A stretch of DNA of 64,000 nucleotides from Amoebophrya sp. A120 (Eukaryota > Protista > Dinoflagellata), in assembly GCA_905178155.1 (NCBI GenBank), contig CAJINV010000004.1, forward strand, positions 9,710,625 through 9,774,624, read 5' to 3'. The notes beneath the pieces are model-generated. The model saw only the letters and a program-made list of their open reading frames with translations. It ran no database searches and was not told the DNA's origin. Shown in pieces: positions 8,147-37,000 of the stretch (the stretch's first letter is position 1; each line of letters opens with the position of its first letter). A program made the translations under genes and the position numbers.

Positions 8147-9255
8147 TTGTGAGAGGGAACTGATTTTCAAGCATCAAAAGCCAGCACTCGTTGGTGTTGA
8201 TGGCTCCGCATGTTGCATCTTTAAGAACATCACCCTTCGAAAATGCACAGCTTCTTGTTTGCAGAAATAAAAAATGTCACGCGACTTCTACATGAAGGTT
8301 TTTACCGAGGTTGTTACGTTGCTCTCCACTGATAAATTCCCCACTTTGTCGTGCCTGTTCGGTTGCGACCAGTCTCGAGCAGATGACCTCTCCTGTCATC
8401 TCTTAAACACGACGCGTGTTCACTGCAAAATAAAACCTACAGAGGTAGGCGTATCAAGTTGAGCCATCTACTTCTACTACTTCAACATCTACGTGCAAGT
8501 GCAAGAACCAAGAATTGCAATTGTACTGGACTTATTTTTGTTGTGAAGACTGTGGTACGTGAAACAGTCTCCTGTTGTGAAGGAGATTTGAACATCGAGA
8601 GATGATGGTGGTATGTCTGTGAATAGCCTGAGAAGTTTTCTTGTAAATTTGATGTACACAAAGATGGTCATACTCATATACGGCCAGCACTTCGGCCTGG
8701 AGAAAAAGCGAAAGTGCAAGATGAACGTGACGAGCTTTACTTTAGTAGAAGATAGCGTAATCGTTGTTGTTGTTCCTCGTTGCTCCTCCTCCTTCTTGTT
8801 TCCGAAATGAAGTAGCGGCTGCTCACGCTTGGCGGGATTTCGCCAGCACCGCCACGGTTCTTGCTAGCACCCCTGCAAGGACCTTCTCGCCGTCAAGATG
8901 GAGGCGCAGCGCGCGGAACAGATCCGCTTGCACGGGGAAGCGCTATCCGACTGCTTCACGCGCGTCCACCGGTTCGTCCGCGATGTAAAAAAGATCGATC
9001 CCGAGAAACAAAGCTTTAAACGACGGTAGGCTTTTGATACGCCGGCGCAATTTGTCTTCACGCTAGATGTACATGCTCCTACCTGCTATTGGTTTCGATT
9101 GATTGTTTTGCCAGATATTAGCTGCATATCACGACTTTATATACGAGTTTCATCCAAAAAAGTAAAAGACCCAACTCAAAAAATACACAAACAGCATTGC
9201 GGAAAACTCCCTTTTAGACGGTGTTGGCCAGCTCGTCCGACAGCTGGAGCTTGCG

Positions 9256-15200: not shown

Positions 15201-18200
15201 GTAAAGTGTTCGTGTGGGTGAGCAGCTACAGCAACGACTTGAGCCGGAGGTATTCGGGGGTCTACGCGAAAAACAACCATCCGGCGTTTCCGTATTTTCT
15301 TACCTTGGAGGAATCCGCAGACTCGTTAAAGGCGAAAAACTGGAGCACTGACGACGCCAAACATCGCGCGGTGGGACTGGTGCCTCACTTCATTTCATCC
15401 GGGTTCGGAACGGCGTCTGGTACTGGTGCCACGCCCCTTTCCACCCCGTCGAAGACGCCCACCAGCTCAAGCTCTTCCTCCACTTCTGCGTCGACCTCTA
15501 CATCCAAACGCACAGTTAACTGCGATTTGCGGTGGTACTTGGCGGAAATCGACCCACTGCAGGGGTATCTATCCACAGGAATTTTTTTCCCATACACGTA
15601 GAAATGTGGCTCCCGCATGACAAACTTTTCCTACGGATCCTCTTCCGCATGACAAGTTGCTTCGTCTAAGTCCGTGAAATGATTTATGATGCATTTTGTC
15701 CATGTATGGGGATAAATTTGTATTGCATAGTAGCAGCCCAATTTGAACAAGCAACCGCAGATCCAGGGTTTACTAGAAACACCCGTTTCGGCGAACAACA
15801 GCGATATCCTCTGGTTGCAAATCGACCCCGAGCACATGTTCAAACAGGACGACCTACGGCTGTCCTTTGAGGGGGACCAGCGGTGGACGCTGTTGCAGCA
15901 GTACTATGGTCCAAACGGGATCTTCCCCCGATATAACAAGACCAATTCGACGGACCAGGTGGAACAGTTGCAGAGCCAAACACCCGGACAGACCCCGACG
16001 GCGGCGGGGGGAAGGGGTGGAGGTGCTGCGTCTGGCCGGAGTAGCAGCAGCAGCGGTAATTCTAGTGCTTGTGCCTCCTCTACTTCGTCATCTTCAACGT
16101 CATCAAGTAGTTCTTCCAGCAGTAGCTCCAATAGGTCTTCGAGTAAGAAGAAGAACGGTCTACCACAGTACACGCCTTTCTGCGAGTATCCAAGAAAAAA
16201 AGTTTGTTAGTGTATTAACTATCTTCGGCTGAGGACAGCATCACAAATTTGCTCTACATGACTGAGTAATAAACCTGTCATGCGTGGCTTGTAAGGGAAA
16301 ACACACACGAAAAGACGACTACATGGTTGTCTGGCATGTTGACAGGTGTCAGAACTCTGTTGCATGTTCTGCATTTTTACAGAGTTACACTTACACAGTT
16401 TTTTTCTTGCATAGCGAGTACGACGAACGAGAATTTTTCGACCTCTACTCCGTCACCGTCGGCGTGTTTCAGGATGAGGCCGCGTATCCTGTGCAAAAGT
16501 ATCGTACTCGTACTAATTGCATTTATGCATGACAAATCTTGTCCTTAAGGTAAAGTAGCACGACTACAAATTCCATTCTTAATGCTGAGAAAATTTGTAA
16601 TGCATTTATACGAGTACGATACTTTTGCAATTCATACCGCGTGGCTGACGTTTATGCAGGGCTTCGAATCCTCCGGCGCGAAGTGCACCGCGAAAACGGT
16701 ACAAAAGAGGCTACCACCACCCTCGAAAAAAAGGAATTACTACGGGAATCTCGGAGGAGGAGGTCGTGGCGGGGACCTGCTCCAGGGAAGTAGAGGTGGC
16801 GCAAGCTCCAGGGCCAGAAATCACAATAACGCTGCTGACGATCGCGGTCGAGGAAACAGAGGACCACGTGGAGGTGGAGATCCTAGTGAAGACGATGACA
16901 GTTTCGTGAACGGCACCAGGGTTATTGTCCCAGAACAAGACCGGAAGTGCTGCGCTGGCCTACTTGGCAATATTAACAGCAAAAGAGGACCACGCGGCGC
17001 TGCTTCGCGAGGTCAACAGCAACATCAAGAAAGTGGCGACTTTCTCTCCGCTTCCCCGCCAACACACCGGTCCAGGTTGAGTCCGTTACTAGGGGGCATT
17101 TTCGGCGGCTGCGCGATTTCTACCCCCAGCCGGGAAAGAACATCAGAAGAGGTTGGGGAGTTCGAGTTGCGGGAGCATCCGCAAAGTGCGAAAAACACAC
17201 CATCGCCCGGCGCGGCGGATGGTGGTCGTGCTGGGAAGAGCAAGTCGAAGAGAGGAGCTGCTGAGGAAGTGGATCTAAGGAACAATGGCACGCGCACGCT
17301 GCAGAAATCTCACAGCGCCGAACAGAGCACTAGTCAGGAGCCGCGGAAAGACCGGCGGGCGGCGCAAGACGCGAACATCAAGCACCAGATATCCTGAGTA
17401 AAAACGTCCCCACACCATTTTCAAGATGGGGAATCGGCTAGACAAATCCACAAGTTTTGGCTGTTTTGCATGACAAATTTGGATTCGTAGTGTAGTGCTG
17501 TCTGAGCTAGCTCAGGAGCATCACAGATCTAGCATACCATGCTGATTGGAGCATGACAAATTGCAAAGCACGACTATAAAATGCTTCTCTTGGGGCTCCG
17601 CATGAGAAACATTTTCAGCATGCAGATTTGCATTACAAATACAACTATTGGGTGGGGACGTTTTTAAATAGGATACCAGAAAGAGAAGTCCAGGACGACT
17701 AGGACGAAAAGAAATCCTATCGCAAGAAAAAAGTGTTACAGTTACACATTGTGTTGCAGGCCAAGCAAGACAGACAAGCTCTGTCATGCCGGATATGCAT
17801 AGGAGCCTCGTTTCATAGGTGTTTTGCCGTAGGATTTCTGCATTACAAGTTTTCTCTCTCATGCAGGGACATTTGTGTTGCTGAATTCACTACAAATGTG
17901 TAACTGTAACACTTTTTTCGTGGGATAAATCCGGCCGATGGAGGCGGAACCACAAGAGTTCAGGCTACCGGAGATGCGCATCGTGATACTACAACCTCAA
18001 AGCCCCAGAAATACCCAAACAGCGCGTCAAAACGGTCCGGCGCACTCGCCAGCTCTCCGGCAATCGCCTGCTCCCCGAGCTCCCCCTCCCACCCCGGGGT
18101 TCTCTCGACCGTCGAGGTCGCGATTGCCAGCAAAACCGAGGAAGACTGCACCATGAACTACCTCGGCTGGAAAGCGAAGGAGCTATTTCCGCCGATAGAC

Positions 18201-19165
18201 GACACGGAACGCGTGCAGATCCGGGTCGGCGTGAGGCGACGCGCGTTGACACGATACAACGGAATCTACCGGAAAATCGTGGTTTCGACGACCCAAGATG
18301 ACTCTAGTATTCTTGGCGAAACCACATCAAGACAACTCCCCATCTTTGTCCAGGAGCTCCACGAAGCGGTGCTTCCCGACGGCAGCTCGTCTCCGAAACT
18401 GCAGGTGTTAAGACCCGGTCACGGCGCGTCGACGTGGACCACGAGTTCTCCTGCGCACGCGATGCCGGCCGCGGCGCTATTCCCCTTTTACGGGTCTGAT
18501 AGGAACGATAAGATCGGGTGGTATCTGACCCACGTGCGGTACGACAAGGAGCTGAAGCAATTCTCCTGTTACAACCCGAACAGCAAGAAGCAGCCGGCGC
18601 TCGCGAACCTTCGCGGGACGATGTGCCATGAGGATTCGCAGTACATTTTTCTGCTCGAAAACGTCGATTTCAGTGGCACGCAGGACTGGTACTGCATCCA
18701 GCAGCACTGGGACAGTAGCGGGAACCCCTTGGATGACGGGAAGAAACCGCCGAAGCGGGGACAGTACTTCGGCAGCGAACACGGGAAGAAGACGGCGACA
18801 CTGCGGGACCTGATGGGGTTCGTCACCGCGGGGTTATGAACTGCAAAAGTATCGCACTCGTATAAGTGCACTGCAAATTTCCTCAGCATGAGAAATAAAA
18901 TCTGTAATGCGGAAATGCCTCAAGAAAAAGATTTGTAATGCAAGACTTGCATTTATATATACGAATACGATACTTCTGCACAGGATAGGGGTGGGTAAGG
19001 GTCGACGTCGAGCCGATGCGAAGTAGAGCACCTGCTTCGGGCTTGAACAATAATACAACCAATAGAAGTCCATTTTCTTCGCCGGTAGCAACTGCGGGGG
19101 GTGGCGGACTTTCGGCGAAAAAAAAGACGAGCAGTCCCAGTGCGGTGCTGCAGTCGCCGAAATGA
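9256..19165 (+). CDS. Large hypothetical protein (>2,400 aa), 12 introners; true start upstream and unresolved (possible exon near 8898-9026)
   Basis: ORF-track fragments 9256, 12042, 12699, 13952, 15065, 15743, 16582 and 18153 join in one frame when the 12 elements plus one DR each are removed; stop TGA at 19163-19165. Confidence 0.75.
11584..11733. mobile_element. Introner family C
   Basis: DR AGTCC; opposite orientation to the 4925 copy. Confidence 0.9.
11784..12018. mobile_element. Introner family B
   Basis: DR CACGG. Confidence 0.9.
12412..12667. mobile_element. Introner family D
   Basis: DR TTCCA; close relative of the 25689 copy. Confidence 0.9.
13623..13934. mobile_element. Introner family F (TIR TATGGAAGCGTCAGGATTGAAATCG)
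   Basis: DR GTCGG. Confidence 0.9.
14691..14841. mobile_element. Introner family C (3' end ACA)
   Basis: DR CTTCA. Confidence 0.88.
14879..15140. mobile_element. Introner family D
   Basis: DR CGACC. Confidence 0.9.
15570..15729. mobile_element. Introner family J (singleton; TIR ..CCCATACA)
   Basis: Imperfect TIR; DR GTATC/GTAGC; frame restored only if the 5' copy is kept. Confidence 0.8.
16187..16413. mobile_element. Introner family G (TIR TATCCAAGAAAAAAA..GTGTAA)
   Basis: DR GCGAG. Confidence 0.88.
16485..16636. mobile_element. Introner family C
   Basis: DR CCGCG. Confidence 0.9.
17390..17675. mobile_element. Introner family H (TIR TATCCTGAGTAAAAACGT)
   Basis: DR CCAGA; close relative of the 37381 copy. 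Confidence 0.9.
17718..17927. mobile_element. Introner family G-like (AAAAAAGTGTTACAGTTACACATT)
   Basis: DR AATCC. Confidence 0.9.
18835..18987. mobile_element. Introner family C
   Basis: DR GGGGT. Confidence 0.9.
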
Positions 19166-21259
19166 ATCCCCTGATGAACAATCAGGCAGAGCTGCGGGTC
19201 GCGACCGAGAGGGAGCAGCCAGTCGTGTAAGAAAATTTTGTCACAAAAATAGAAACATTTGCATAGTCGTGCTACCTTTATCAATCTTAGATTAATCTCA
19301 ATGTAGAAGTGTCCAAAGCTGGAAAAGTGTTTACCTCTCGTGATTATATTTGAAAAAAAAACAATATATAATATACCAAAACTGTTGGACTTTGAACACA
19401 CCTGCCACACTGAGCGAACAAAGCTCCTACCTTCCGAGGTCTTTCAATCACCACAAACGCTTCAATCTCTCAGCAGACAGGGCGAAAGCCTCTGGCTGCG
19501 TTGCGTCCTGTGAGGATTCATCATTCAAGGCCCGCGGTCATTCGTCATACATCATCTCATCGCAGGCTCTGAGGCTTCAGGTCTCTAGGTATTCTGGGAC
19601 CTATTTCCCACTCTGCATCTTGAGACTTGACCGAGGAAGGAGATCCCTGATAGAGTTTTGATCAAGGTTTTGGCCAGATTCTGGGATCTTGGGAGGTCGG
19701 CCAGATCGATACCGTAGAAGCCTGCGTAGGTAAAGTTTCGATCTAGGGCGGCCGTCCTGGGTAAAGTTTTAGCAAGGACGGACGTCCTAAGTAAAACCCT
19801 AACCCGGGAGCTACCAAGCCTGAGGACAAAACCTGAATCATCTGAGGAGCCTGATCTGCTCCCGGATCTCCTCAGCTCATCGCTTGCATTTGGGGAGCAG
19901 GCATGTCGGGATCTCATAGAAGTTGCAGTCTTGCGTGGAGGTAGGGTTTGGATCACATGACCAACAAAAACCAAGAACAGGAATACAGCAGCAAGATGAA
20001 ACTTGAGCAAAAGCGTCGAGAATAATAAATCGTCACCATGCCGCTTTTACACGACCGACCGAGCACCTGCACCCACGAAGATGAGCAGAGAGTGACACTC
20101 ACACTCCTCGTCGTTGAAGGCCACATCTTGTAATATCAACATTAGCATACAATGCACCGGAGCTACTCAGCTGAGCGTAGGCAACACAAGTTGAGATTTT
20201 GGAGATATAGACACACAGCAAGACCAAGAGTCGCAACCTCGTTGGCTGGGTGCAGAAGGAAAATTTTTGAAAATGGAAATGAATCAATATGAAACCTTCG
20301 AGTGGCTGTATCATGTTGGTACAAAGAGAAAATCCTCCAAGAAACAAGAACCTCCTTTAATACGCAACGCTCTGTGCTGCGAAGTCTCTCACTAGTGAAG
20401 GTCTTGGCCAGTCGTTTGAAAAGTAAAAGCGACTTCGGTCCTAACATTGCCGCAGCAACAACATGTGAAATCGGTTTCTAATTCACAAGCATAATGTTAT
20501 CCGTGATGGCATTGTTGTGTCATTGGTCATGTCGGTTCTTTTATTTTGGGTAGTTCTACGTATCATGTCTTATGCGCAAAACATAGCCAGCATTCGATCT
20601 TCGTATCTCAAGAATGTCTTCCGTAAAATTACTGTCCAGGTCGTGCAGTTTTTTCCCCGGCGATTCCCACATGTCTTTAATGAAGATTTACGTGTAATCA
20701 AAAACGAAGAGCACTCCTATCTGGGAGTTCCTACTGCAGTAGTTTACCACCAACATTTTCCTTTCTTTTTCGAAGATCGTAAGAATTGCTATCAAGTGAC
20801 ACTAACGTCCCTCTATCGGTAGAGTAGTATTCGTACTCCGAATCGTCATCGGTATCGTACGCGTACTAATTCGTATCGTTCAGCAAGCTAGTCGTAATCG
20901 GTGTGCCAGCGCAATAATTATCTGTCGTGCTATCGTATATAGGTCGTGCTATGCATCGCGCCATCGCAGTAGCAGTACCATCGTTGTACCACCATGGGTC
21001 CACTCGTGAACGCATAACGTCAGGTGCCTTGAGTCAACTGGCAACTTGCATTCCCACTCTAATAAAGTCACAGCGTTCCCGCCGTTGTACGGTTCTACTT
21101 TTGGAGGGTCAGCAAGGTGTTCCCCTTCCCACATTTTCCTTACAAGAAGACTATTAGCAGTAGCATCTTCACACATCACAGCGAGCTCCAGACTGTGTTC
21201 AAGAATTTCTTCAACAGTGAGTGCTTTCTACGCAACATCGTAAACTATTCCCAAGAGCC

Positions 21260-24200
21260 ATGACCTCAAAACCCGCGCCTGGGCGTTGCACGTACTTTGA
21301 ATTCCGGAAAAAGCTGCGCGAAGACGCTGCTTGGGAGGAGGAGGCAAGACGCTTGCGCGCAACGCGGGCCCAGCTATCAAATGTAAAAATGTCTGGGCCT
21401 GGAAGAATGCAACTTGTCATGCTCAATCGGAAGCATGCAAAAATCTGTGTTGCATGATTGCCAAAAGTCGTCCAGTTTTGGCCAAGTCGGGAGGGAGTTT
21501 CTCATGCAGGATAGGCATGAGAGAGATCGCACAGAATCTTTCATGCTAGGTCCTGCATTCCAGACCTCATGGGTCATGGAAAAGCTGCATGACAAGTCGC
21601 GCACTCTTCCAGACCCAGACACTTTTACATTTGCTACCAGCACGAGGTTGACCACGACGCAGACAGGAAAAGAGAAAAGGACGCAGAAAATGACGATGGC
21701 AGCACGTTCCACAAAGACTTCTATCACAAGGAAAAATCCCCCCTCCCCATATCAAAAGGAAGTTTCTGATGCTGGATTTGCGTATACAAATCAGGTCTGT
21801 CTTGCAGTAGAGGAAAGCAGGCTCCTGCCGAGCCTGAGTAGAGAGCTTTTGGCCTAGGCGCTTAGCATGAGACACGTCTACGCTGTAGGCCCAACAGCAT
21901 CACAAAGAAACCGCCTGCATAATGCGGCAGAGCCTGTGGAGATGTCTTCTTGCAAGACAGACGTGATTTGTGGTCTCAAATCAGCAAGACAAATTTTCGC
22001 AAGCATACCTTTTCGATATGGGGCGGGGGGATTTTTCCTCTCAATAACTTGAACTTCCAGGCTTTCCTCGTTCTCAAGTGGGATGAGGATGTCCTGGACT
22101 TCGACGGCGACTTCTTAGTCACCAGCACGAACCCCTGGCTCGAGGGAATCAAAAACGAAGACCTGTATACTAACACCACCGGCGACGTATGCATTGCAAA
22201 TATGTCTGGGTCGGGAAGTAGAGTGTACACGTGTCATGCAGGTTTTCGTTTTCCACGTTGTCTGGAATGCGAGACCTAGCATGACACAGTCTGTGAGGTG
22301 GTCTCTCTCATGCCTATCCTGCATGAGAAACTCCCTCCCAACTTGGTCGAAAGTGGACAGCTTTTGGCACTCATGCAACAGAGATTTTGGCATGATTCGG
22401 ATTTAGCATGACAAGTCGCAATCTACTTCCAGACCCAGACACTTTTGCAATCCATACGACGGTCGAACGAACTATGGTGGCGCGGACGCAGCTTTGCACG
22501 CTTTGTGTCCGAAACTCGCGGATCAGAGCCGACAGGCGCTGAAGGAGCAACGGGACAGGCAGAAGCGGCGACAACGCGCCCTCCGCGACGACCGCCGCAG
22601 ATTATGCATTGCAAAAGTATCGTATTCGTATAAAGATAAATGCATTTACGAATTTCCTCAGCATCATGAGAAATAAAATTTGTAATGCGGACTTAGGTTA
22701 AGAACAAGATTTGTAATGCATGTTTGCAACTACTACGAGTGCGATACTTTTGCACAGGATACAGATCTGCGACGGGCGAATCTTTGGAAAGCGGTGTCGG
22801 ATCGTCGCCGAGGTCTATCAAATGCAAAAGTGTCTGGGTCTGGAAGGTTGGAACTTGTGATGTAAGCTTTGGACTCTAAACAAATCTGTATTGCATGACC
22901 AGCAAGGTGAGGAGTCTAGTTTGTGCTACGCAGGGAGGGCGTTTGTCATGCGGCGAAGGCAGCTTCAGCAAGCCCTCTAAAAATATGTGGTGCTAGGTCG
23001 TGCACTACAGACACCCTGGGCCAAGCAAAATATGCATGACAAACTCACGTCCCAGCCGTCCCAGGAGTTTCTGTTGCTGTCTCTCGATAGAAATCGCGCT
23101 GTCGAATTTAAATATTTCTGTCTTAGAGTTTACCGAGTGCGCGGCTTAAGTTTCTTTGTAGGCTTAATTTATTCAGGGACACCCTGCCCTTAATAGTCTC
23201 CCAACATGACAAACCCGGCAACATTCCAGACCCAGGCACTTTTGTATTTGATAGGGTCGCTCGGGGACAAGTCGATCGCAAGACTGGGGTCTGGCGACGT
23301 CGTATTCGCTTCGCCGAGAGCTGATATTTCCGAGCAGGATCATATCAGCGAGAACTCCGGAGACCCGATACAGGGAGAAAGTACAGCAAAACCGAAGAAA
23401 GCGCCGGTCGTTCGTCGCATGACGCTCGACCCCTCCGCGCTTGGCGTGGACCCTAGAGCGGGAATGAAGAAAAAACGCAGTGGCAGCAGCGGTTTCGGGG
23501 ATGTATCAACTGCAAAAATGTCTGGGTCTGGAACGAAGCAACTTGTCATGCTAAATCTGAATCATGTGCAAATCTGTGCTGCATGATTGCCGCAAGCTGT
23601 CCACTTTTGACCTAATCGAGAGGCAGTTTCTCGTGTAGGATAGGCATGGTAACACTAACGCAGTAGAATCTGTCATCATGCTCATATGTCCTACATACCA
23701 GACCTCATGGGTCATGGAGAACCTGCGTGACAAGTCTGGCATTCTTCCAGCAGACCCAGACACTTTTGCAGTTGATACGATGAAGAGGAGAACAAGACGG
23801 AGGCAGTTTTTCTGGAGAAAAAAGTCTACTCCCCGCGCGCAGGGGGCGGTCCATCGCCTTTAGCGTCGCCGCGATCAGGGCAGGGGACGATGATCTCGCC
23901 GAGAGCGTCTCCGAAGGCTTCTCCAAGGTCAATCGCATCTGGGAGCAGGTCGGGGACAGGAAGCCTTAATGTCGAAGGAAAGCACATGGCGCCTTCTCCG
24001 TCCGCTTCCCCACGGGCTTCTTCGCCTCGTCTCGTCTCCCCGCGGAACCCGCGGGATGACATACCTGCCCCGCGTGCAGGGTCTGGCGGGACCCACGTGA
24101 TCAAAAGCCGGCCGTCACAGCGGACGATGGGGATGCGGTGCGGGAGTAAGGAGTCCAACGTTACGCCGACGTACGGGACGCAAGTCAGCTACGGAAGCGT

Positions 24201-26460
24201 CAGGATTGAAATCGTCAAAGTTGAAATAATTTCGCATGCATAATTAAATTGCAAGGCATGGAGTGCCTCTCTTGCAGGGATGGCAAGTGAGGCCGACTGT
24301 CAGCCTGTTTCTTTGGGGTCTGCGATGCAGCTGCCAAAGTAGCATGACAAAGGACGCCTTCTGTCCCTAAACAGCATGACAAACTGGACTTAGAGGACGG
24401 TGCCGAAATCTGTCATGCGCCGCTTGGTAATTGGGCTTTCAACTGGTATCGATTTTATGCATTACAAGTTATATATAATTTCAACTTTGTCGATTTCAAT
24501 CCTGACACTCCCATATCAGCCCGATGGAGAGAGCGCCAGGAGGTCGCGACCAAATCACACCGACTTCTGAAGCTGCAACGAGAAGCCCACGCGGGGACAT
24601 GATGAGCCGGAGTGGCAGTCTGGAGTCCAACATGGCCGCTTCCTTCATCAACGAGTTATCCGCCGGAGATGTCGATGTGGTCGGACCACTACGATTAACC
24701 CCCGGCGAGGTCGTCGAAACCGACGCGCCGAAAGAATTGGCGAGAAGAGTAGGCGTCAACATGAACGGGCCGCCCGGGTCGAAGAAGTTACGAATCTTAC
24801 ACGTGTGTCTCCCGGTGTACCCCCAGCCTACTCTCTCCGCCCGACTCGCCCGACTGAGCAAAGCGAGCCCGAGAACTGCTGCTGGTGAACAAGGTGGCGT
24901 GAGCCCCAGAGGGGCTGGCGGGCCTGGGACAGAGGCGGAACAGCAGGCACGGATCAAAAAGGAGAAAAGAAAGAAGTACGAAGACATCGCACTGACACCG
25001 GAAGTATCAAATGCAAATAGGTCTGGGTCTGGAAAATTTCGAGATTTGTCATGCAGTTTTTCCAAGCTCTAGCTCCACCAAGTCTGGAATGCAGGAGGGC
25101 CTAGCATGATCACAGGTTCTGCAGCCCCTTGGTGATGCCTTTTCTGCATGAGAAACGGGGTCCCTCTCGGCATGGCTAGAAATGGGGACCTTTTGCAAGT
25201 CATGCAGCCCAGATTTTTGTATGATCCGCTTCCGCAACACGCATCACAAGTTCGCATCCTTCCAGACCCAGACACTTTTGCAGTTGATAGGAAGCGGCAC
25301 AACAGTGTTTGAGGGCTGTGTGCAAGGAAACACTGTTTTGGTCCGTTCTAGGGGCGACGAACCGGCTGTCCTTATCGGCCATTGCGGAAGGAGGTGGGGA
25401 ACATCAAAAGCAAAACCCCTCATCTATGGCGTTCTCAATTGTTACATTCTCAACTGTTGCATGAGTTTGTGATGCAAGAATGGCAACAGGAAAAGGCCGG
25501 ATCTTGCAACTCTTGCATTACAAATTCGGCACAGATTCCCATGCTGTTTAGCCCTGCCAAAATTTGTCATGCGAGGCAGCTTCACTGTGTGGACGTTGGT
25601 GCTCATTCTGCATGACAAACCATGTAACAGTTGAGAATGTAACACTTGCGAACGCCATATCATCTCCCCGTCCGCAAGACGACGGAGCTATCAAATGCAA
25701 AAATGTCATCTGGGTCTGCGTCTGGAAGAATATATGTTTGTCATGCTTGTCTTTCATGACTCTTAACCTTAAGTCTGTCATGCACGTTACCCAAGAGCTC
25801 CATTTTTCTGTGAGGCAGGAACGCAGTTTGTGATGCAGAATAGGCAACACCTAGAAGCTCAGAAACTTGTCATGCTGAGCCAGCATTTGTGGCCTCATCA
25901 TGAGACGCCACCCAGCATCACAAGTTTCCAGACCCAGACACTTTTACACTCGATAGGAGCCCGGTTGGTGCAACGATATACCAGGCTGTGCTACGCGCCG
26001 ATCGGTTGCGGCTGCAGGGAGTACCCACTGCAGGTCGCGGTGACGCATGCCGTCAACGGGTGGTTTGAGGCCGTGCAGACGTTGAGACACCAATCCCGGG
26101 GACGGGTCGCCGGGCAACTGATCTCGATCGAGGTGCGCTTCAAGAAGAACGTCGTCGCGTTTCGGGAGTGGGACAATATCCTGTGCAAAAGTATCGTACT
26201 CGTAGTAATCGCAGTCATGGCATGCAACACAAATTTTCATCTCAAGGAAAAACAGCATTACAAATTCCATTTGTCATGCTGAGCTAATTTGTAATGCGAT
26301 TAATACTACTAGTACGATACTTTTGCGATGCATAGACAACTTTCTCCGGCAATCCTTGCATGTTAGCACGGAAAAGGATTACAAGAACGCAGTGCGGGAA
26401 TTTACGGTGAACATGCGCGGATTCGATGGCGGCAGGTCCAAGTTGTGTTGCGGGTTTTAG
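21260..26460 (+). CDS. Hypothetical protein (~715 aa), SPR-rich, ending KLCCGF*; 11 introners
   Basis: GCC-ATG at 21260; the frame is continuous after excising 11 elements; TAG at 26458-26460. Confidence 0.75.
21375..21636. mobile_element. Introner family D (3' end CTA)
   Basis: DR CCAGC; very similar to the 51880 copy. Confidence 0.9.
21722..22046. mobile_element. Introner family A
   Basis: DR ACTTC/ACTTG; very similar to the 2826 copy. Confidence 0.88.
22188..22456. mobile_element. Introner family D
   Basis: DR CGACG. Confidence 0.9.
22603..22761. mobile_element. Introner family C
   Basis: DR CAGAT. Confidence 0.9.
22816..23253. mobile_element. Introner family D carrying a 160-bp internal insert (23045-23204)
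   Basis: DR AGGTC/GGGTC; insert flanked by duplicated CATGACAAAC. Confidence 0.85.
23504..23777. mobile_element. Introner family D
   Basis: DR GGATG/CGATG. Confidence 0.88.
24190..24515. mobile_element. Introner family F (5' end TAC)
   Basis: DR TCAGC. Confidence 0.9.
25005..25289. mobile_element. Introner family D
   Basis: DR GGAAG. Confidence 0.9.
25425..25659. mobile_element. Introner family B
   Basis: DR TCATC. Confidence 0.9.
25689..25955. mobile_element. Introner family D
   Basis: DR GGAGC. Confidence 0.9.
26177..26334. mobile_element. Introner family C
   Basis: DR GACAA. Confidence 0.9.
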
Positions 26461-28746
26461 GTGGAAGATGGGCACCAGCACGTGGTCTGTGTCCTGCTTC
26501 AATATCGAGAACTTTATGTGTAGCTGCGTTCCTATCAAAGCTTAAGCTACCAGTAGTTACATGTACAGTCTCTAATACCTCCCAGATGTAAGAACTGGAA
26601 AAGTAGTGGACGCCTGTGTCGTAGTATTTCTGTCCAATCGCGATCAGAAGTTGAAGGTGTAATTATCAGGAACTGAAACAAGAACAACTTGGAACTGACA
26701 ACGAATTTAAGTAAATGTGTGAAGCAGATCCTGCATCTTCGACACGGCACTCATCTATGGCTTGTGACATTATTGGATCGCACTTCTACGTCTAAACAAA
26801 TCAGAATTACGCGCGACAAAATCTTCAGACGCACGGTTCACGAGTTGGAATTCCAAAAACGACAAAAATTTTCCGCTGGCCGCACGATTCGGCAAGACCA
26901 AAGAACACGCTGTTCACGCTCCAAAAAAACGTCTTCGATTTGCTGAAATACTCAAACTCGTACTCGTCTCCTCCTCTATGGTTTCTGAGTCCTTCTTTTC
27001 GCCTCACAGAACGCAGCCACAAGCCCTGTGATGGTGAATTTTTACGAGCAGTTCATACAAGACACTGACAGATCGTATCTTTGAAATGAACGACAGCAAC
27101 TGTTGCAATACTCTTTGTCCCGCTACGGCTACTAGTAGATCATGACCTCTTGCTTCGCAAGCACGGCTCCAAAGATGAAAGATCAACATCATAGGTCTTT
27201 CCCGCGTTTCCAAATTAAGGTAGCAAGGCCGCCGCTCAAAGAATGATAGTGATAAATGGCGCGCCGCATGTGGTCCGCCATTATTTTGCCCGAAAACGAA
27301 AACCAAAAGTAAAGAGACCTCGATCGATTCACGCTTCTCCACCTAACACTCAGCGACCGATATTCTCTCTCAACGTTTGGGGCCTTTCGGGCTCGAAAAA
27401 GTAAGTACAAAAGCACGCTATCTTCTAGAAAATAAATGACCCTCTAGCGATAGCGTTTTGGACGATTTTTTAGCTTTACCACTGAACAACGCCGGCGCTC
27501 AGATCGGCCTGCAGTAAACAAAACTCTACTTGATATTACAGATACAGCGTACTGAAAAGTTTAAGTGAGCACCCGAATATATCTTTATCTTCTTCCGTGA
27601 TAGTATAGTGATTCTCAACAAACCTATTCTTTTTTGGCAACGGTTTTGCACCGATTTTGGTTCCTTGCCGAAGGTAGGTGCAGCACTCGTGTTTCTTTCC
27701 TGCATCAAAAACCGCCCACGTAAAACCAGTGTTTGTGTTAGTCGTGTTACTGTTCGAACCCGTGAAAGTAGTCCAAATACAAATTGTAGGACATTTTGTG
27801 TCACATTTCATAGAACTAGTCGAGGCTTCAGAAGTGTATTTGATAGAACCGCGATATCAACGTATTATTTTTGCATTCCCAGGAAAAAGTACTACAGTTT
27901 CAATTTAGCTTTTCTTTGGTCTTACGAACGCTTTTAGCGCAAAAAAGATAGACCTGACTGAACTAGTTCAAGTTCCAATCTGTGCCGTACAATTTCAGCA
28001 GCAGTTTCAGATAGAAGCAAACGCAGAATAGGGCGAAAATTGGAGCAAGCAGTCGTAAACAGTGGAGAGATGTACTACTAGAATCAAGATGGCAGGACAA
28101 CTAAACTAGACCTAGGTTTGACAGAGGCGCAACGAAGAACCGAAACGAGAAAAGACGACAAGATGGCAGCTACTTTTCATCACCGTTTGCATTGCACTAA
28201 AGCCCTGACGACCACCTTCGCGTAGAAGCTTCACCAGCTCCGTTAAAGACGCCTACACATTTTTCTCTTCGGAATCTGTGCTGGTCGGAGCAGACAGAAA
28301 TCACGCGGCGTGCAAGAATCTTTTGCGAGTATACATCGGCATCCAAACAACGACTTCAAACAGAACTTGATTCTAAAGTAACTCTCCTTGGAGAGCCTGT
28401 AACTTTATCTTCCTGGTACAGGAACGCACACGATCACGACTACAATCGTGGCGGTATCACCGGATTGCACGACGGCACCCAGAACTACAACACACAAGGA
28501 CGAAGAGAAGAGCAGTACTTACTTACGACACCGAGGAGCTGCAATCCATCGCATCTGTAGACGTCGTAGTCGAGAAATAAGCTTCGCCCGTCACCGCCGT
28601 GCAGATTATCGAGCAAAAGGAATCGGTGGGCAGGACCTGATAGGGAGCAGTAGAACTTGTGAAAACAACAACAAGAAGCTTCCAACGTTTACAACTAGTA
28701 CACCTGATACTAGCTACACCCGACTATAATTTTTATATCCTTAGCC

Positions 28747-31700
28747 ATGGCAGCAGCCGTTCAAGAGAACAACCAGCAGAAGCAAAACTGGGGGGACATG
28801 AGCAGTGACGAGGAGCACAACCTCCAGCCTCAGTCCGCGGCCCAGCAAGCCCCCGGCGGCGGTGGTCTCCAGACTGCTTCTACGGTCTTTTCCAACGCTG
28901 ACTCCACCTCTGTGCCGACAATCGCGTCCACGAAAACCGCCTTGGTGAAGGGACAGCGTTGGGCCGATGTTTCTTCCGATTCCGAAGTCGAGGAAATTGC
29001 ACCTCCCTCCCGGACTATGACACAGCTGTCCTCGTCTCCCAATGGTTTGGGGAATACCGGTTCGACCACAACGTCGTCGAACAACAATAATAATCATAAA
29101 ACAGCGTCTAAATCGGGGTGGAAAGACTGGAAATCGGATTCGAAAGGAGAGTGGAAGGATTGGGACAAGGACAACAATAGTAAACAAGCGGACTACAAGA
29201 AGAAAAAGTGGACGGACCAAGAATGGAAAGAGTGGAAGGAATGGAAAGACAGCAGTAAAGACCACAATAACTCCAGATTGTCAGAAAGGACAAGCTCTTA
29301 CTACAGCAAAAACGACACAACTTCCACCGGAGGTGGTGCCGGTGGAAATAACAGCGGCGGTGGGTACAACAATAAAACGAAAGAAGGCCGGGATTCCTTC
29401 AGCCGGCGGAGTAGGAAGGGGGAAGGGAAAGACGGTAGTTCCTCGAAAGAAGGAAAACAAGATCTTAAGCGAGTCAGCTCCTCTACTTCCAAACACGATA
29501 GTAACACTGGCAGTACTAGAAAATCCGAGGGAAAAAGTACCGAGAAAGGGAAGGGAAAGAGAAGTAGTAAGAAGGGGAGTAAGGACGGAAAAGACAACAG
29601 TAGCGCAGCTGCTGCTGACGCAAATTATGGAGGCTCCGACATGATTCCGCCGGAAAAAGATAACATTTCCCGCACCGTGTCTACGAAGCGAAAGACCCGG
29701 GAGATTGGCGAGGACGAAGATTGGTCTGCCGACGAGGAAGCGGTAATACCCGCGGCTCTGCGGCGGACAGAAACGGAAGAGCCGGCAAAGGAGACGAAAA
29801 AGGGGACTAGCGGATATTTTGGTATAGTTTGATAAAGCTAGAAGTACGTAAAACATAAAGGAGTGCTCAAATTCGTTGCCTTTATCTCCATGAGAGGACT
29901 GAGCGTCATAATTTTGCTTCATCTGCATGACAAATCTAGTAAATCGCCTTCGAAAAATTTATCAATCAAAGGTCGATTCGGGATGGTGGAATCCTCCGAT
30001 GAAGAGGACGACGAGGACGCGGAGGAGCGAGATTCCGACGGTGAATCTGAGGAAGAGCAGGAGGCTGCGTCGTCCGACGAGGTAATAGTACAAAAACTTT
30101 TTGTGTTTACTACTTTGTCATGCAGCTTGGTTCGCGAAACCGAAATATCTACGGTTTGTCTTGTCATGCGAAGAATTGGAATTCAAACTGGACGATGACG
30201 GCGACGATTCTGAGAAATCGAAATAGAAGTTCGCTCAGCACACTATCTAACAACACTACCAGGCCGAGGATGAGGATGCGGAGGAAGAGCAGGAAGCCGC
30301 TTGTTCCTCGGAAGTAGTAGAGCCAGGCGAAAATAAACAAGAAGCTGCAGTAGACACGACCACTACTTCCAGCAAGAATAACCAGGACGCTACTAGTTGT
30401 ACTACAACTTCTATCACAGGAAAAAAGTGTTACAGTTACACATTTGTTGGAGTTTGTGCATCACAAAGTTGCTCGACATAGCAAAGAAAACCTGTGATGC
30501 GCAGACTATAAGGGAAAACACGAGTGAAATGATGCTGGCAAGCATTTCCTGCATGACAGAGGTTGTCTGTCATGCTGGGCCTGCAACACAATGTGTAACT
30601 GTAACACTTTTTTCTCCGGATAACTTCGGATAACAAAAACGCCGACGCGCCGACACCCACGACTGCCGCTGGGAAGAAGAAGGGCAAGAAAGTATCAAAA
30701 GGAAAAATCCCCCCTCCCCATATCGAAAACGAAATTTGTGATGCTGTATTTGAGTACACAAATCGACTTGTAATGATAGAAGGCCAGGAGACGCACCTGT
30801 GGCCTCGGTTGCAGGCAATTTGTCATGCTGTCTCCCACTTCCAGCTGCCCCCTGTCATGCTGAAGATGCAAGGCTTTCCCACGCCAACCAGCACTACAGT
30901 CCGCATCTTTTCCCTTCTAGCATGACAAATTTGATTTGTGACCACAAATCTGCATCACAAATTTCTAGTTTGAGTATGGGGTGGGGGGATTTTTCACTTT
31001 GATAGAAAGCAAAGGCGGCAAACGAAGACGAAGATTTAGACGCGATTTTAGCGGAACTGGGGATGGAAGAACAGAAGGGTATTCGTTTGTTTCTCGTTAG
31101 TTTTTGTTTTGTTTTTTTCAGAAAATATTACTGATGCACGAATTATACGAAGTTGATGAATCAACAAAACGAAAAGAGGCTGCAAATCACAAAATAAACG
31201 ATAACTTAACTGCAAAATAACTACACCTAGGTGCTGATCCGAAGGACACTTCCACACCAAAGGCCGAGGAACAGTTGTCCACTCCTGAGCTGCTCAAGGA
31301 CAACATCGAGGACGAGACAGAAGGCGCTGGCGAGCAGGTTTCGAAAAACAAGAAAAAGAAGAACAAAAAGAAGGCCGCAGCTTCCAAGGACAATAATACA
31401 GACACCAATACGTCAACTTCCCCTGCTGACGATACCGCCGGCGGTGGTGTGGTGGAGCAGACTCCGAGCACAACTTCGGAGGCCATCGCGGCAGTAAAGG
31501 CAATATCAAATGCAAAAATGTCTGGGGGTGGAAGATTTTGAGATTTGTCACGTTTGTCTGGCATGACCAAAAAGTTTGTGATGCCTGTCCAAGAAGAGAC
31601 CCTTTTGCCTGTCATGCAAAAACGCAGTTTGTCATGCGAAAAACGCAACACAAAGAAGCGCAGATATTTCTCATGCTTGCCTGTGCATTACAGAGCATTC

Positions 31701-31862
31701 ACTATTCCCAACGCAGCATTACAAGTTTCCAGCCCCAGACATTTTTGCAGTTGATAGGCAAAGCTGAAGAAAACCAGCTCCGTGTCAAAGGAAAAATCCG
31801 CAGCGGACATAGCCAAAGAAGAGGCACTGAAGAAAAAAGCAAAAAACAAATCCAAAAAGTAG
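28747..31862 (+). CDS. Lys/Glu/Ser-rich hypothetical protein (~613 aa); GT-AG introns 29822-29971, 30082-30262, 31079-31230 and 3 introners
   Basis: ATG at 28747 (361-aa ORF); the spliced frame continues through EDLDAILAELG and KNKKKKNKKKAA to TAG at 31862. Confidence 0.7.
30412..30622. mobile_element. Introner family G-like
   Basis: DR ACTTC; opposite orientation to the 17718 copy. Confidence 0.9.
30693..31004. mobile_element. Introner family A
   Basis: DR GAAAG. Confidence 0.9.
31504..31756. mobile_element. Introner family D
   Basis: DR GGCAA. Confidence 0.9.
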
Positions 31863-33426
31863 ATGTAGCCGGCGGAACAGATGCAGCTCAAGATGAAATC
31901 AAGCTACTTTTTCTTTTTCAGTGTCGAAAAAATGAAATTGTCTCTCTATACTAGAAAGGTGAAGTGTAGTCAAGAAGCATGAAGTTATCTTGACCGCGAC
32001 CGAGAATGCGACTTCGCATTTATTTTCAAACGGTTCTATTTGTTGTCTTTCGATTTTCAGTTTACACACCTTGGTCTATTTCAATCCTGTTTGTATATCA
32101 CACTCGAACTTTAACGGTCGCATGAAATTCTGTTTTACGTTATTCTGTTTTACTGTCTTTTGCTCTTGCTCTATTACACACACTTTCTGATATTGTTTGT
32201 TTGACATTGACACCCGTCTAATTTTCAACACTTTGACTTTCACTTTCTCTAGTCGGACTAGCATTAGTATCATTGTTACACGACTTTTTTATGCTGCCAA
32301 ACAGGTTGTTATTGTTTCAACTTTTGTCGCGTATGAAACTTTATGTACTTACTTATCTACACAGGGCTTTGACGTGGCAGTTCCGCTTGTATGTATTGCC
32401 ATCTCGGGCTGTATTGCCTTTGAGACCTCGGAAATAAAACAAAACTCAAGTCGCACTCCTCCTCGTACTTGAGTACTAGTAAGTACTACTCCCTCCCTCA
32501 GAAGGGTAAAGGCCCACCCTTTACCTTTCCTATGCAATTAAACGAAGATGATCAAGATGGGGAGCAAGAAGAGCTCGCGCACCTTGATCGACTTTTACGT
32601 ATCAACATAACACTCTCCTGAAGAAGATGAAAAACAACAACACAACGGCCTCACTGGGTAAGAACTCAGAAGCTGCGGCACAGGTGCTCGGGGTCCGCCA
32701 TTGAGGAAGACAAAGAACACAAAAATGGAACAATTCTTGAAAACGCGGTGAATAAATAAAAAGAACAACTATTTAGAACACCAGACTGACAAGCTGTTTT
32801 AGTTTTTTAGGCAGCTCTGAGACAACGACATTGAAACACAAGATGACCGTACAGAGGCAGGATGTGCAATTATCTATCACTTCAAGTCATGGATGACACA
32901 CCCACCCAGGGCAGATTATTCGAGGGAAGAGTTATGCTATGTATCAGATAGGATAATTTTGATATCCGAAGCCGAACAAGCCAGTGCTCTTTTAACGAAT
33001 GAAAACTTTCAGTATAACTCAACGAAGTTCATCATCCCTCAAAAATCCGGAAAGCTTTCCAACTCTCCGAGTGGGGCAAATTGGGATTTCTGTGGTTATT
33101 GACAAGAACCTCAACCTAGAGGTTTTTGTCTGCTGCACCGTGGTCGAGGAACGAAACACGATGTTCTACCCTGGCAGGAACGCTTCGTCACAGGCATCTA
33201 CTGCTCGTGATGTTTTAGGGGTCTGGACAAACTGAATCTTTGGCAACAAGCCTTTTTTTTCGTTTTTGGTGGATGTTGTGAATCGCCAACAAGCATCGTT
33301 CCGACTTCTCCCTTCGGAGTTTCTTCAAAAAGAAAGTTCGGTCGTGGCATTCTCGTCTTCATCAGAAGAAGAAGATCAACGGATGTGAAATAAATTGGAG
33401 CGCACTTTTGAACACCACCGCCATAG

Positions 33427-33783
33427 CAGCCACAAAGACCGCTTCCAGGGCGCAAGCACAACGACCCCCCGCCGCGGGTCAAGCAGGCGCTCGAGCTGCG
33501 GGGAGCTAGTAAGGCCCTCCCGCCGGGGGTCACCTACAACAAGAAAACGCAGAAGCTGCTCGTGACGGTCCGAGTAAAGATGGATGACGATGGGGAGACC
33601 TACCCACTAAGCAAAGTGGTCGACCCGGAATTGTCTGCAACGGCCGAGGAGGCGCTGGAGGCCGCACAGCAAGCCCGCGCGGACGTGCTTGCGAACTACC
33701 GCGAGCGGGTCGACGTCATCCGGGCGCAACGCGCGCAGAAGGCTGAGGCCCCCGCCCCGCCGCTCGGGGGTCTCGCACAGTGA
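33427..33783 (+). CDS. GC-rich exon or gene fragment encoding a possible AP2-like DNA-binding domain
   Basis: Open frame reads KALPPGVTYNKKTQKLLVTVRVK..SATAEEALEAAQQAR; resembles the AP2 pattern (GV, beta strands, AEEA..A..R helix) by eye only; no start codon identified. Confidence 0.4.
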   Translation, partial: QPQRPLPGRKHNDPPPRVKQALELRGASKALPPGVTYNKKTQKLLVTVRVKMDDDGETYPLSKVVDPELSATAEEALEAAQQARADVLANYRERVDVIRAQRAQKAEAPAPPLGGLAQ

Positions 33784-34024
33784 ATTCGAAGAAAGGAAAG
33801 AATCTGTTCTGAAATTGAAATCAAGAGGTTCTTCACGTTGAAGTTCCTCAAATAGACTCCTCATTTTGAGTAGAAGTCTCGCGTACTACGCGAACGCTGT
33901 AAACTGTAAACTGTAAACGCATCCGTAGTTTCCGCTCCTTAGTTTCACCCAAAAAAGAAATCGGTGTCACCAGAAATCAAGATGTGACAAAATATATGAC
34001 GAGACCAACCCTCGACGCCCCACC

Positions 34025-37000
34025 ATGAGCAAGGGTGCAGCCGACGACGCCGGGTTAGCTGCAGCGGGGCTGAAGACCCCGCCGCGGCGGGGGAGCCTGA
34101 CCAAAATGGCGCGGCCGCTGCAGATTTGCGAAATTGATTTCGATATGTATTGCAAAAGTATCGTAATAGTATGAATTGCAATACAAATTTCCTCAGCGTG
34201 AGAAATAAAATTTGTAATGCGGATTTACGATAAGAAAAAGATTTGTAATACAAGACTTGCACATATACGAGTGCGATACTTTTGCACAGGATATTCGAGG
34301 GGAACTGCGTCAAAACCTGCCATGAAAGCTTGGAAATTATCGAGGAAAACTTGCAGGAGCTGGGTATTTTGTTTTATTTTTGTGTCTAGTACATGAGAGA
34401 CAGAGTCAGAGATCATGTTCTAGATTTTCTTGCATATGCATGGCAGCACAGCATCCTGAACCTGATTTAGCTTCACCTTGCTCGTACGAAGCTAGTTGTA
34501 ATCCACTGCATCTAGTAGTAGTATAAAAACCCACGCGAATTGAATAAAGCAGGGCCAAACAATTGCAAAACCACAGCGAAATCGATGAGCAAACCGGATT
34601 TGAAAGTCGCAGTGATTAGCGTGATGGGGATGTATATCCCACGAAAAAACTGTTTCACTGTTTTTGCAAGTTTTGCATCACAAGTTTGTTACACATGACA
34701 CTCAAAATTTCTTATGCGCGCTTCCCAAGGGAAAACACGCTTGCAAATCCAGTGTCTTGCAGGTGTAGCAAGACAAATAAGTAGTTCTGTGTCCCATTTT
34801 CTGCATCACAACTTCACACTGAAACAGTTTTTTCTTGCGATAATGTACCGAACAGGAAAGTCGTTCTTACTCGACCTGCTCTATCCCGTGCAAAAGTATC
34901 GTACTCGTGGTGATTGCATTTTTTATGCATTACAAATTTCTTTCTCAAGGTAATTCAGCATTACAAATTCAATTTGTAATGCTAGGCTAATTTGTAATGC
35001 AATTTCTACTAGTACAATGCTTTTGCACTGCATATGCTCCTCCGGTATTTGAAATCTCAAGGGCCGATCACGAAGTTTGACGCTTCGAAAATATGGCACA
35101 TGGGAGAGAAGAGCTACAACACGGACAGTTACTCGCTATGAAATGCAAAAATGTCTGGGTCTGGAAACTTGCAATGCTAAAAGTGAATGATAGACGCGCC
35201 GCAACACGCAGTCGCAGCTATGCATGACAAATTTTGTGGCTGTCATGTCTTACGTATTCCGCATGGCAAACTGCCTTTTCGCATGACAGTTAAGAGGGCT
35301 CTTTCGTGCCTTTGCAACACAGATTCTCAGGTCATGCCAGACAAGCATAGCAAACTTACATTCTTGCAGACCTTTGCATTTGATACTCGTGGTTGGGAAA
35401 CGAAACTAGGATATCGGAAGGAAGCACGAATGAGCGAGGGTTTCATTGGCGGCCGGGGATCGAAAAGTGCACCAAAGGTAGTGTTAGTATCAGTAGAATT
35501 TTCTTTGTTTGTGAAAAGTATCAACTATGATACCATCGTGCGTAAGATGATCCAGGATGGCGTCACGTCTTTTAGGAACTTGTCTTTACGGCAACACTGA
35601 TAGCAACGTGCTGAGTAATGTTACTCCGCCTGGTATAACGTAGGCGATTTTCCAATATCCATTGCACCTTCGAGAATAATGTTAAGCCTGATGGTATGAT
35701 TATTACGTTATACTTTGCACATTTTTGGTCTGAAGAACGTAGTGGTAAAGTGATGCAGCATAACATTTCATTTACAATCATCCACATCCAAATTCATCCT
35801 GTCCCAGGTATCTGGCTCTGGTCCGAACCATTCCTGATGGAAAACAACGAAACGGGCGAACCGCTAGCAGTACTCGTGATGGACACGCAGGGCGCGTGGG
35901 ACTCGCAGATGTCCTCGGAGCAATCCTCGTGCATTTTCGGCATCACCGCTTTACTTTCCTCGATATGCATTGCAAAAGTATCGTACTATTAGAAATCGCA
36001 TGACAAATTTGCGTAGCATGACAAATGAAAATATTGTAAGTAATGCAGATTTATCTTAGGAAGCAGATTTGTGTTGCATGATTGCAATTAGTACAAGTAC
36101 GATACTTTTGCAAAGCATAATCGAAACTCATTTACAACTTACAGAACCGGATATCCGAGGAAAAAGTCGATAATCTTGACTACTTCACCACCTACGCCTA
36201 TCCAGGAAAAAAACGGTGTAAGTGTAACTGTGTAGCGAGAATAGCATCACAAATTCGCTTTGCATTCTTGCAGGGAAAACCTGTCATGCGCAGCTAGTAC
36301 GTGGAAACACGTGTGGAAGTAGCCTATGAAGCAGACCCAGCATGACAAGTGTAACAGTTTCGCACTTTCTGCATCACAGACTTACACTCACATAGTTTTT
36401 TTCTTGCATAACGCCGGGATCGTGATTCAAGAAGCGCGGGAAAAAGCTACTCGAGCGCTGAACAGCGTTTCGCCACGAGGAGACCCGAACGCGGGCGATG
36501 GAAGTGGCGCCTCTTCGAAAGAGAAACCCGTTGCAGCTGCTGGCGCCGCGACGGAAACAGAAGACGAAGAGGAGGACGACGCAGCGGGGTTGGGCGATAT
36601 CCATTTTCTGGTTCGGGATTGGGAGTATTTCGAGGACCATTGGACACTCGACCAGTGCACGAAACAGGTCTCGGATCACCTGATGACGCACTTGGACCCG
36701 AATAGGGTCACGGTGGAGGAGCGAAGAGAGACGATTACCAGATTACACAACCTTTTTCGAAGTAAGTATTCATCTTACGGCTTTTCTTTCATCTGTTGGA
36801 TGATAATCACTCTGTGTAGCAAGTAGGTCAAAAAGCGATTCTTGTTCAGATGATGTATATTTTGCATGCCAATAAAAATTATACCGCATAAACAACTGTT
36901 GTTTCCAACATGATCGCAGGCGTCAACCTGTGCTGTCTCCCGCACCCTGGGCCCCGGATCCCGAAGGCGAATTGGAACGGCTCGGTGACGGATATTGACA

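Follow-up and report, generated by a model that had tools for sequence, protein, structure and literature searches.

Mismatched target duplications bracket the splice register of transposon-derived introns in Amoebophrya sp. A120

Transposon-derived introns in the window

The window analysed here, a stretch of 64 kb from contig CAJINV010000004.1 of Amoebophrya sp. A120, holds genes whose long spliced reading frames lie on the forward strand and are interrupted by short elements with inverted TAT...ATA ends. A scan for these ends with flanking repeats, together with an end-similarity scan, identified 56 such elements between positions 2826 and 63845, inserted in both orientations. Their lengths range from 142 to 1382 nt, 53 of the 56 being shorter than 330 nt, and they make up 23.6% of the window. 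Each element is flanked by a 5-nt direct repeat, perfect in 46/56 and with a single mismatch in 10/56 (position 1 in four, position 4 in three and position 5 in three, where "position" denotes the place 1–5 in the repeat). When the left flank of one element was paired with the right flank of another, perfect repeats were seen in 8/3080 pairs and single mismatches in 78/3080. The end profile of 270 elements displayed an inverted repeat of 8–20 nt at both ends, with TAT first and an A-run after seven variable bases. Folding paired at least 10 of the first 18 bases with the mirrored end in 50 of 54 elements, a prediction made without a shuffle control. The elements are short, carry terminal inverted repeats (TIRs) and a target duplication, and have no coding capacity, like miniature inverted-repeat transposable elements (MITEs), or non-autonomous TIR DNA transposons; an Rfam scan of the window returned 0 matches. 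They form repeated families, are absent from transcripts and have borders other than GT-AG. The elements are transposon-derived introns, and transcripts lose the element together with one copy of the 5-nt duplication.

Introner elements of A120 were published by Farhat et al. (2021), with the splice border left "unknown" or variable (PMC7789003). The first-pass annotation of the window had proposed that the cut lies between repeat positions 4 and 5 (register 4|5), giving introns of the form N-TAT...ATA-NNNN with an NT donor and an arbitrary acceptor. Its counts were reproduced: 56 elements, 10 mismatched repeats, position 5 of the left copy being C in 21, G in 17, A in 13 and T in 5, and the right copy carrying AG at positions 3-4 in 6/56. 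At this register, a GT donor is present in 17/56 and is never combined with an AG acceptor (0/56), and any register yields at most one GT-AG intron; the canonical U2-type pairing of a GT or GC donor with an AG acceptor is thus lacking in the window elements. T occupies intron position +2 in 56/56 under the proposed register alone, and in 0–14 under the others.

Three long elements (22816-23253, 58703-59429 and 61212-62593) are otherwise typical members of their families, extended close to one end by inserts of about 160, 400 and 1060 nt, respectively. The first is nonetheless skipped in transcripts, and the largest insert is GC-rich with inverted repeats of its own. A solitary end-like sequence was observed at position 56255, for which the element scan found no partner. 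A few ends read TGT or ACA (window 14841, and L001:2455 and L026:3975 in the larger sample described below), which offers a lead for the mobilising enzyme. The combination of a 5-bp duplication with TGT/ACA ends is reminiscent of Ginger or long terminal repeat (LTR) integrases. A TIR family with Copia homology has been described in A120 (PMC12130899), and no transposase was reported to be found in A120 (PMC7789003).

Transcript evidence for element removal

Removal of each element with one repeat copy opens long frames on the forward strand, and this was compared with transcript-like contigs from two samples of one study (X1 and X4), whose runs were guessed to be RNA. The first comparison covered 24 elements, and the joints listed were 15 of 72 rows, 11 of them element joints; the second covered 12 elements, 8 of them with joints, and gave no joint row for the elements at 4211, 11584, 11784 and 13623. 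Among the joints listed, 19/19 element joints (11 and 8, respectively) skipped the element plus 5 nt. The host frame 21221..26457 (+) spans 728 codons after the removal of 11 elements, and all 11 joints are present in the contigs. The host frame 9166..19162 (+) spans 2461 codons after the removal of 12 elements; an X4 contig spans 14205-15900 over three joints, and no Pfam match was obtained on the seven exons scanned. Elements with an altered terminal triplet (14691, 21375 and 24190) were skipped all the same, including 21375, which has no A seven bases from the 3' cut.

These skipped forms could in principle have arisen without splicing, if X1 and X4 represented DNA of an element-free strain, or if the mismatches were assembly errors or the product of RNA editing. 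The comparison drew on runs flagged "RNA?", and possible editing has been reported near 4% of A120 intron borders (PMC7789003). However, X4 also skips the GT-AG intron 7227-7396, and 0 other letters were present in all but one of the long pieces listed. Since the contigs skip a canonical intron and carry hardly any differing letters, their behaviour is that of spliced RNA derived from the same strain. Moreover, the second assembly described below has a similar mismatch rate (61/316), and the base chosen at the junction agrees with the proteins of relatives. We consider an origin other than splicing extremely improbable.

Splice register at mismatched repeats

Where the two repeat copies differ, the retained base identifies the copy from which it was taken. 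Both repeat pairs on which the first-pass annotation had built its register, at 15570 and 35137, were as it had described them. The repeats of element 15570-15729, GTATC (15565-69) and GTAGC (15730-34), differ at position 4, and the X4 joint 15568->15734, with one letter of slide, takes position 4 from the 5' copy. The resulting intron, 15569..15733 (+), consists of C, the element and GTAG, and leaves the TAT anticipated at 15566-68. The reading frame agrees with this choice: the 3' copy would place an in-frame stop after 1667 open codons, whereas with the 5' copy the frame continues for another 794 codons.

For element 21722-22046 (ACTTC/ACTTG, position 5), the joint 21716->22047 was present in both X1 and X4 with 4 letters of slide and takes position 5 from the 3' copy. 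It gives the predicted TTG after 22046 and, at the proposed register, an intron 21721..22050 (+) with the ends CT..TT. Position 1 was taken from the 5' copy at two further sites. The joint 22811->23255 belongs to element 22816-23253 (AGGTC/GGGTC; proposed intron 22815..23257 (+)) and shows the AGG expected at 22811, while the joint 23499->23779 belongs to element 23504-23777 (GGATG/CGATG; proposed intron 23503..23781 (+)). At element 4211-4484 (CGGTT/CGGCT, a synonymous position 4 with a non-AG acceptor; proposed intron 4210..4488 (+)), an X4 contig of depth 2.9 starts two unaligned letters ahead of the 3' copy at 4485 and carries a single differing letter, which is absent from the list of differences away from contig ends. 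This indirectly fits the 5'-copy base at position 4.

Element 35137-35385 (CTCGC/CTCGT, position 5) interrupts a gene of the atlastin/GBP family, with a proposed intron 35136..35389 (+) that has the ends CT..CG. Its joint is not among the joints listed, and support for the register comes from the proteins of relatives. With the 3' copy, the codon after 35385 is TGG for Trp, which the first-pass annotation expected as an atlastin residue. In an alignment of 36 of 41 homologues (five were dropped by length), Trp was found in 2/36 rows, which are the two closest relatives (A25 orthologue P0002, P0004), Leu in 23 and Arg in 1. The conclusion therefore holds in the closest relatives, but the reason given for it was weaker than stated, as Trp is not conserved family-wide.

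Two mismatched sites of the second assembly were also informative. At L050 (ATGCC/GTGCG), the annotated A120 protein reads Met-Arg across the junction, and Arg was found in 28 of 29 other homologues and Pro in 0, which assigns position 5 to the 3' copy and position 1 to the 5' copy; the one PDB relative aligned across the site has His there. At L028 (GAATT/GAAGT), the A25 orthologue has Phe, the 5'-copy residue, and not Val, so that position 4 comes from the 5' copy. As Pfam matched only 3/26 exon pieces at mismatched sites of this assembly, most of these sites lay beyond homology testing. The remaining four mismatched sites of the window yield introns predicted from the DNA alone: 2825..3155 (+) (element 2826-3151, CACGG/TACGG, position 1), 35963..36123 (+) (element 35964-36119, CTCGA/ATCGA, synonymous position 1), 51879..52145 (+) (element 51880-52141, TGACT/TGACA, synonymous position 5) and 58229..58502 (+) (element 58230-58498, CACTG/CACCG, synonymous position 4, non-AG acceptor).

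The tested junctions support a cut bracketed between duplication positions 4 and 5, N-TAT...ATA-NNNN. The base at position 5 is that of the 3' copy at three sites (21722, 35137 and L050), and the base at position 4 is that of the 5' copy at two firm sites (15570 and L028) and one indirect site (4211). No direct test among these sites gave another register. Register 4|5, as the first-pass annotation had it, is very probably the main register genome-wide, and we infer its sameness at every element from sites bounded on one side.

Composition of the larger element sample

A search with the window repeats gave 149 stretches, of which 147 were taken in, all from assembly JACKZZ01. At one JACKZZ01 repeat locus, the encoded protein agrees with an annotated A120 protein at 100% of residues over 74% of the query; none of the window's own proteins had a direct match to an A120 record. 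Within the loci lie 316 non-redundant elements whose repeats differ at no more than two positions (255, 48 and 13 with 0, 1 and 2 mismatches, respectively), and for 214 of them a frame could be assigned with confidence while the repeat was masked. In gene orientation, the set of perfect repeats comprised 218 elements (172 from the loci and 46 from the window). AG occurs at positions 3-4 in 19/218 (expected 15.2), in agreement with the arbitrary acceptor of the first-pass annotation, and GT-AG in 4/218, which is about chance. Within this set, no dinucleotide bias against the coding background was found at any repeat position, AG and GT included, and no G-G or A-C pairing bias was found between intron +1 and -1. 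As many as 61 of the 64 NT-NN combinations occur, none more than 12 times. Position 5 is G in 72 (expected 62), C in 55 and T in 30 (expected 41, p=0.07); the shortage of T at donor +1 seen in the window (5/56) is thus weaker in the larger set.

Related elements lie in opposite orientation in 65 cases and in the same orientation in 63. Any splice signal must therefore sit in the symmetric ends. Among 345 elements found without requiring terminal bases, 225 lie in confident frames, with T at intron +2 in 225/225 and the mirror base in 223/225, while +3 is altered in 2 and +4 in 7. The codons formed at mismatched repeats were also more plausible with the 5' copy at positions 2-4 (18 to 5, p=0.011). 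Intron phases at the proposed register (251 elements, window and loci) were 104/68/79 (p=0.017), a mild phase-0 excess that comes from the loci, with no sequence bias to explain it.

Several observations weigh against a uniform register 4|5. No single junction is bounded on both sides, and at both firm position-4 sites (15570 and L028) positions 3-4 of the 3' copy read AG, so that these cuts could be AG-directed, the non-AG acceptors being directly bracketed only as "after 1, before 5". The L050 query started at Arg, which biases its matches. The T at +2 is also the terminal base of the element, so its conservation may reflect transposition, and the difference from the mirror base (0 versus 2 exceptions) is not significant. 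Codon plausibility is noisy, as position 1 went 6 to 10 against the 5' copy and position 5 went 5 to 6. Contigs drop rare variants, which hides minor registers, and the raw-read runs X9 and X10 gave 9 and 121 aligned reads, nearly all of them partial, with the genes not covered. A further caution concerns published motif counts. The aligner BLAT scores splice bases one by one. BLAT was used for the gene models in PMC7789003, and Table S4 of that paper may have been shaped by it. The table gives nine predominant A120 motifs, all with N-T donors at 2–3% each, and nine A25 motifs, all TT, which fits T at +2.

The same observations bear on the possibility that the register varies by element or by molecule, since any cut after positions 1-4 restores the message, and that 4|5 is used only where AG is offered or a harmful codon is avoided. 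AG is present at both firm position-4 sites and, with these two included, lies in the 3' copy alone at 4/9 position-4 mismatches (window 15730-15734, L015, L028 and L065) and in the 5' copy alone at one. This is a hint that intronic repeat copies drift toward a canonical acceptor, and the difference is not significant. The legends of Fig. 3 and Fig. S23 of PMC7789003 call the sites variable, 1–5 nt from the repeat, and Polarella introner classes splice in several frames (10.1101/2020.10.14.339549). On the other hand, every direct test was compatible with 4|5, the non-AG site 4211 supports it indirectly, positions 2-4 pooled favour the 5' copy, AG is enriched at no repeat position, and the top motifs of Table S4 include neither a TA donor nor a TA acceptor. 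A variable register is very unlikely overall, and less likely than the hairpin ruler considered below, but possible at non-AG sites.

Canonical introns and other features of the window

A canonical GT-AG intron at 7227..7396 (+) starts with GTAT (GTATG) and has its own 5-nt repeat, ACAGG (7223-7397), with GT-AG at cut +4. This intron may have arisen by decay of an element, or it may occupy an ordinary proto-splice site. The canonical donors examined were GTAT at 7227, GTAT at 34364, GTAG at 35478, GTAA at 36762 and GTGA at 37049, with GTA in 4/5; the latter four were called from sequence and homology.

In the atlastin gene, PF02263 was matched on an exon downstream of the 35137 element, and one atlastin exon of the window has 80% identity to an A25 protein. 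Upstream of this gene, contigs with many differing letters map to 33489-33838, which suggests an expressed paralogue of the short frame 33427-33783. The frame 41252-55687 spans 4317 codons after the removal of five elements, with no Pfam match on four large exons scanned, and the start of a protein kinase domain (PF00069) was located at 59436-60527. Positions 1-640 are occupied by a tandem array with a 17-nt unit.

Proposed splicing mechanism

On insertion, an element of either orientation would duplicate 5 nt of nearly any coding target; the repeats, the composition and the orientations are observed, and the transposition itself is presumed. Base pairing between the inverted ends is predicted for the pre-mRNA and would draw the two borders close to each other. 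The 5' cut would then fall one base before TAT, so that T and A of the element occupy intron +2 and +3. The pairing of U(+2) with A51 of U6 would be kept, and the contacts that read G(+1) and AG would be lost. The 3' cut would follow four bases after ATA, fixed by distance and not by sequence. As 1+4 equals the length of the duplication, any target regains its original sequence and reading frame, and insertion anywhere in an exon would thereby be possible at little cost.

Given register 4|5, we regard a spliceosomal route as probable. A relaxed major spliceosome is favoured because T and A fall on +2 and +3 in this register alone, matching the canonical donors here. It is also favoured because U(+2) pairs with U6 A51 in the yeast spliceosome, while G(+1) and AG are read via pairings with each other and with the branch A (10.1101/212811), and because the A120 spliceosome is nearly complete, with the U1 small nuclear RNA (snRNA) undetected (PMC7789003). 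Taken as a whole, a fixed-offset cut in all copies, made by a relaxed spliceosome that keeps only U at +2, with the terminal hairpin replacing GT and AG, is the account towards which we lean.

The same fixed register could instead be produced by non-spliceosomal machinery like that of Euglena, which would take the paired inverted repeat as its reference and measure out 1 and 4 nt, with U+2 being merely the end of the element. The 218 perfect repeats show no G+1 or AG signal at all, the independence of orientation puts the signal in the symmetric ends, and U1 snRNA was undetected, all of which such machinery would accommodate. In Euglena introns, too, a paired CAG/CTG must be flanked by spacers of fixed length, 3 and 5-6 nt, and other proteins have been proposed to act on these introns (PMC12501133). 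Against this, canonical introns occur in the same transcripts, and the canonical intron at 7227 has equal geometry (a GTAT start and a cut at +4 in a 5-nt repeat). The offset also sets T and A exactly where a spliceosome would expect them, changed terminal triplets (14691, 21375 and 24190) do not stop skipping, and the same repeat organisation has been reported for 15% of A120 canonical introns (PMC7789003). Euglena-like machinery is rather unlikely here, and we retain the relaxed spliceosome.

Tentatively, the Amoebophrya spliceosome may have given up G+1, the 3' AG and U1, with the terminal hairpin and U(+2)A(+3) being read in the first step and the 3' site being chosen by a 4-nt ruler. One rule could then serve the tens of thousands of "motif-less" A120 introns, and the TT-NN introns of A25, whose repeat starts with TTA, would follow the same U+2, A+3 rule. 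With a single register, the scatter of motifs reduces to one rule, gene models can be put right where repeats are mismatched, and the mechanism becomes accessible to tests of the base required (U+2), of the possible place of a branch and of a 3' site chosen by distance. If true, it would offer an example from nature of a 3' splice site selected with no AG, and it would explain how the elements fill a quarter of the window with no target preference.

Comparison with known systems

The elements themselves are already known. More than 60% of A120 introns were described as non-canonical and without a clear signature, with the splicing mechanism called an open question (PMC7789003), and a 2024 review still terms the Amoebophrya borders variable. 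A published statement fixing the register was not found in the available parts of PMC7789003 (its figures and supplement parts 4-5 lying outside coverage, as did subscription papers and theses), PMC12130899, PMC11282704, PMC12005148, PMC11453091, PMC12621601, 10.1101/2020.10.14.339549 or 10.1101/2025.08.15.670264, and PMC13149111 contained no matching term. What is new is the resolved splice rule, drawn from six one-sided sites for positions 4 and 5, one of them indirect.

Like the published A120 introners (PMC7789003), the window elements have inverted repeats starting with TAT, a run of A around positions 11-15, direct repeats of 5 bp (Fig. S19 legend), lengths of 140-330 nt and non-GT-AG borders, and their direct repeats overlap the borders, as the published definition of 3-5 nt repeats describes. 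They differ from the published account in a border that is bracketed to 4|5, with one rule instead of many motifs.

The nonconventional introns of Euglena, 5'-N3CDG...CH'GN5-6|R (PMC12501133), resemble these elements in their fixed spacers outside a paired inverted motif, the longer 3' spacer, the absence of GT-AG and a proposed MITE origin. In contrast, the spacers are 1 and 4 nt here versus 3 and 5-6 nt, U+2 is invariant here and the lineages are unrelated. The motif is TAT/ATA and not CDG/CH'G, and the next exon starts with C in 55/218 and T in 30/218, in place of the purine of Euglena. The Euglena rule was shown by knock-in, whereas the rule here comes from natural mismatches only.

The introners of Micromonas, Aureococcus, Symbiodinium and Polarella (PMC11282704; 10.1101/2020.10.14.339549) are likewise DNA-transposon introns with inverted repeats and a target duplication, and Polarella class 12, with a 5-nt duplication NNAGG and the element's first base as donor, has an equal 4|5 geometry (10.1101/2020.10.14.339549). 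However, these introners need G-H donors and an AG from the element or the target, neither of which is enriched here (GT-AG in 4/218). The non-canonical introns of Fritillaria borealis (10.1101/2025.08.15.670264; PMC11282704) are also transposon-derived, with borders set from unambiguous junctions, and an altered major spliceosome removes them. What Fritillaria retains is the penultimate A (88%) together with AG donors, whereas in Amoebophrya the 3' end is free and the base that is kept is U+2.

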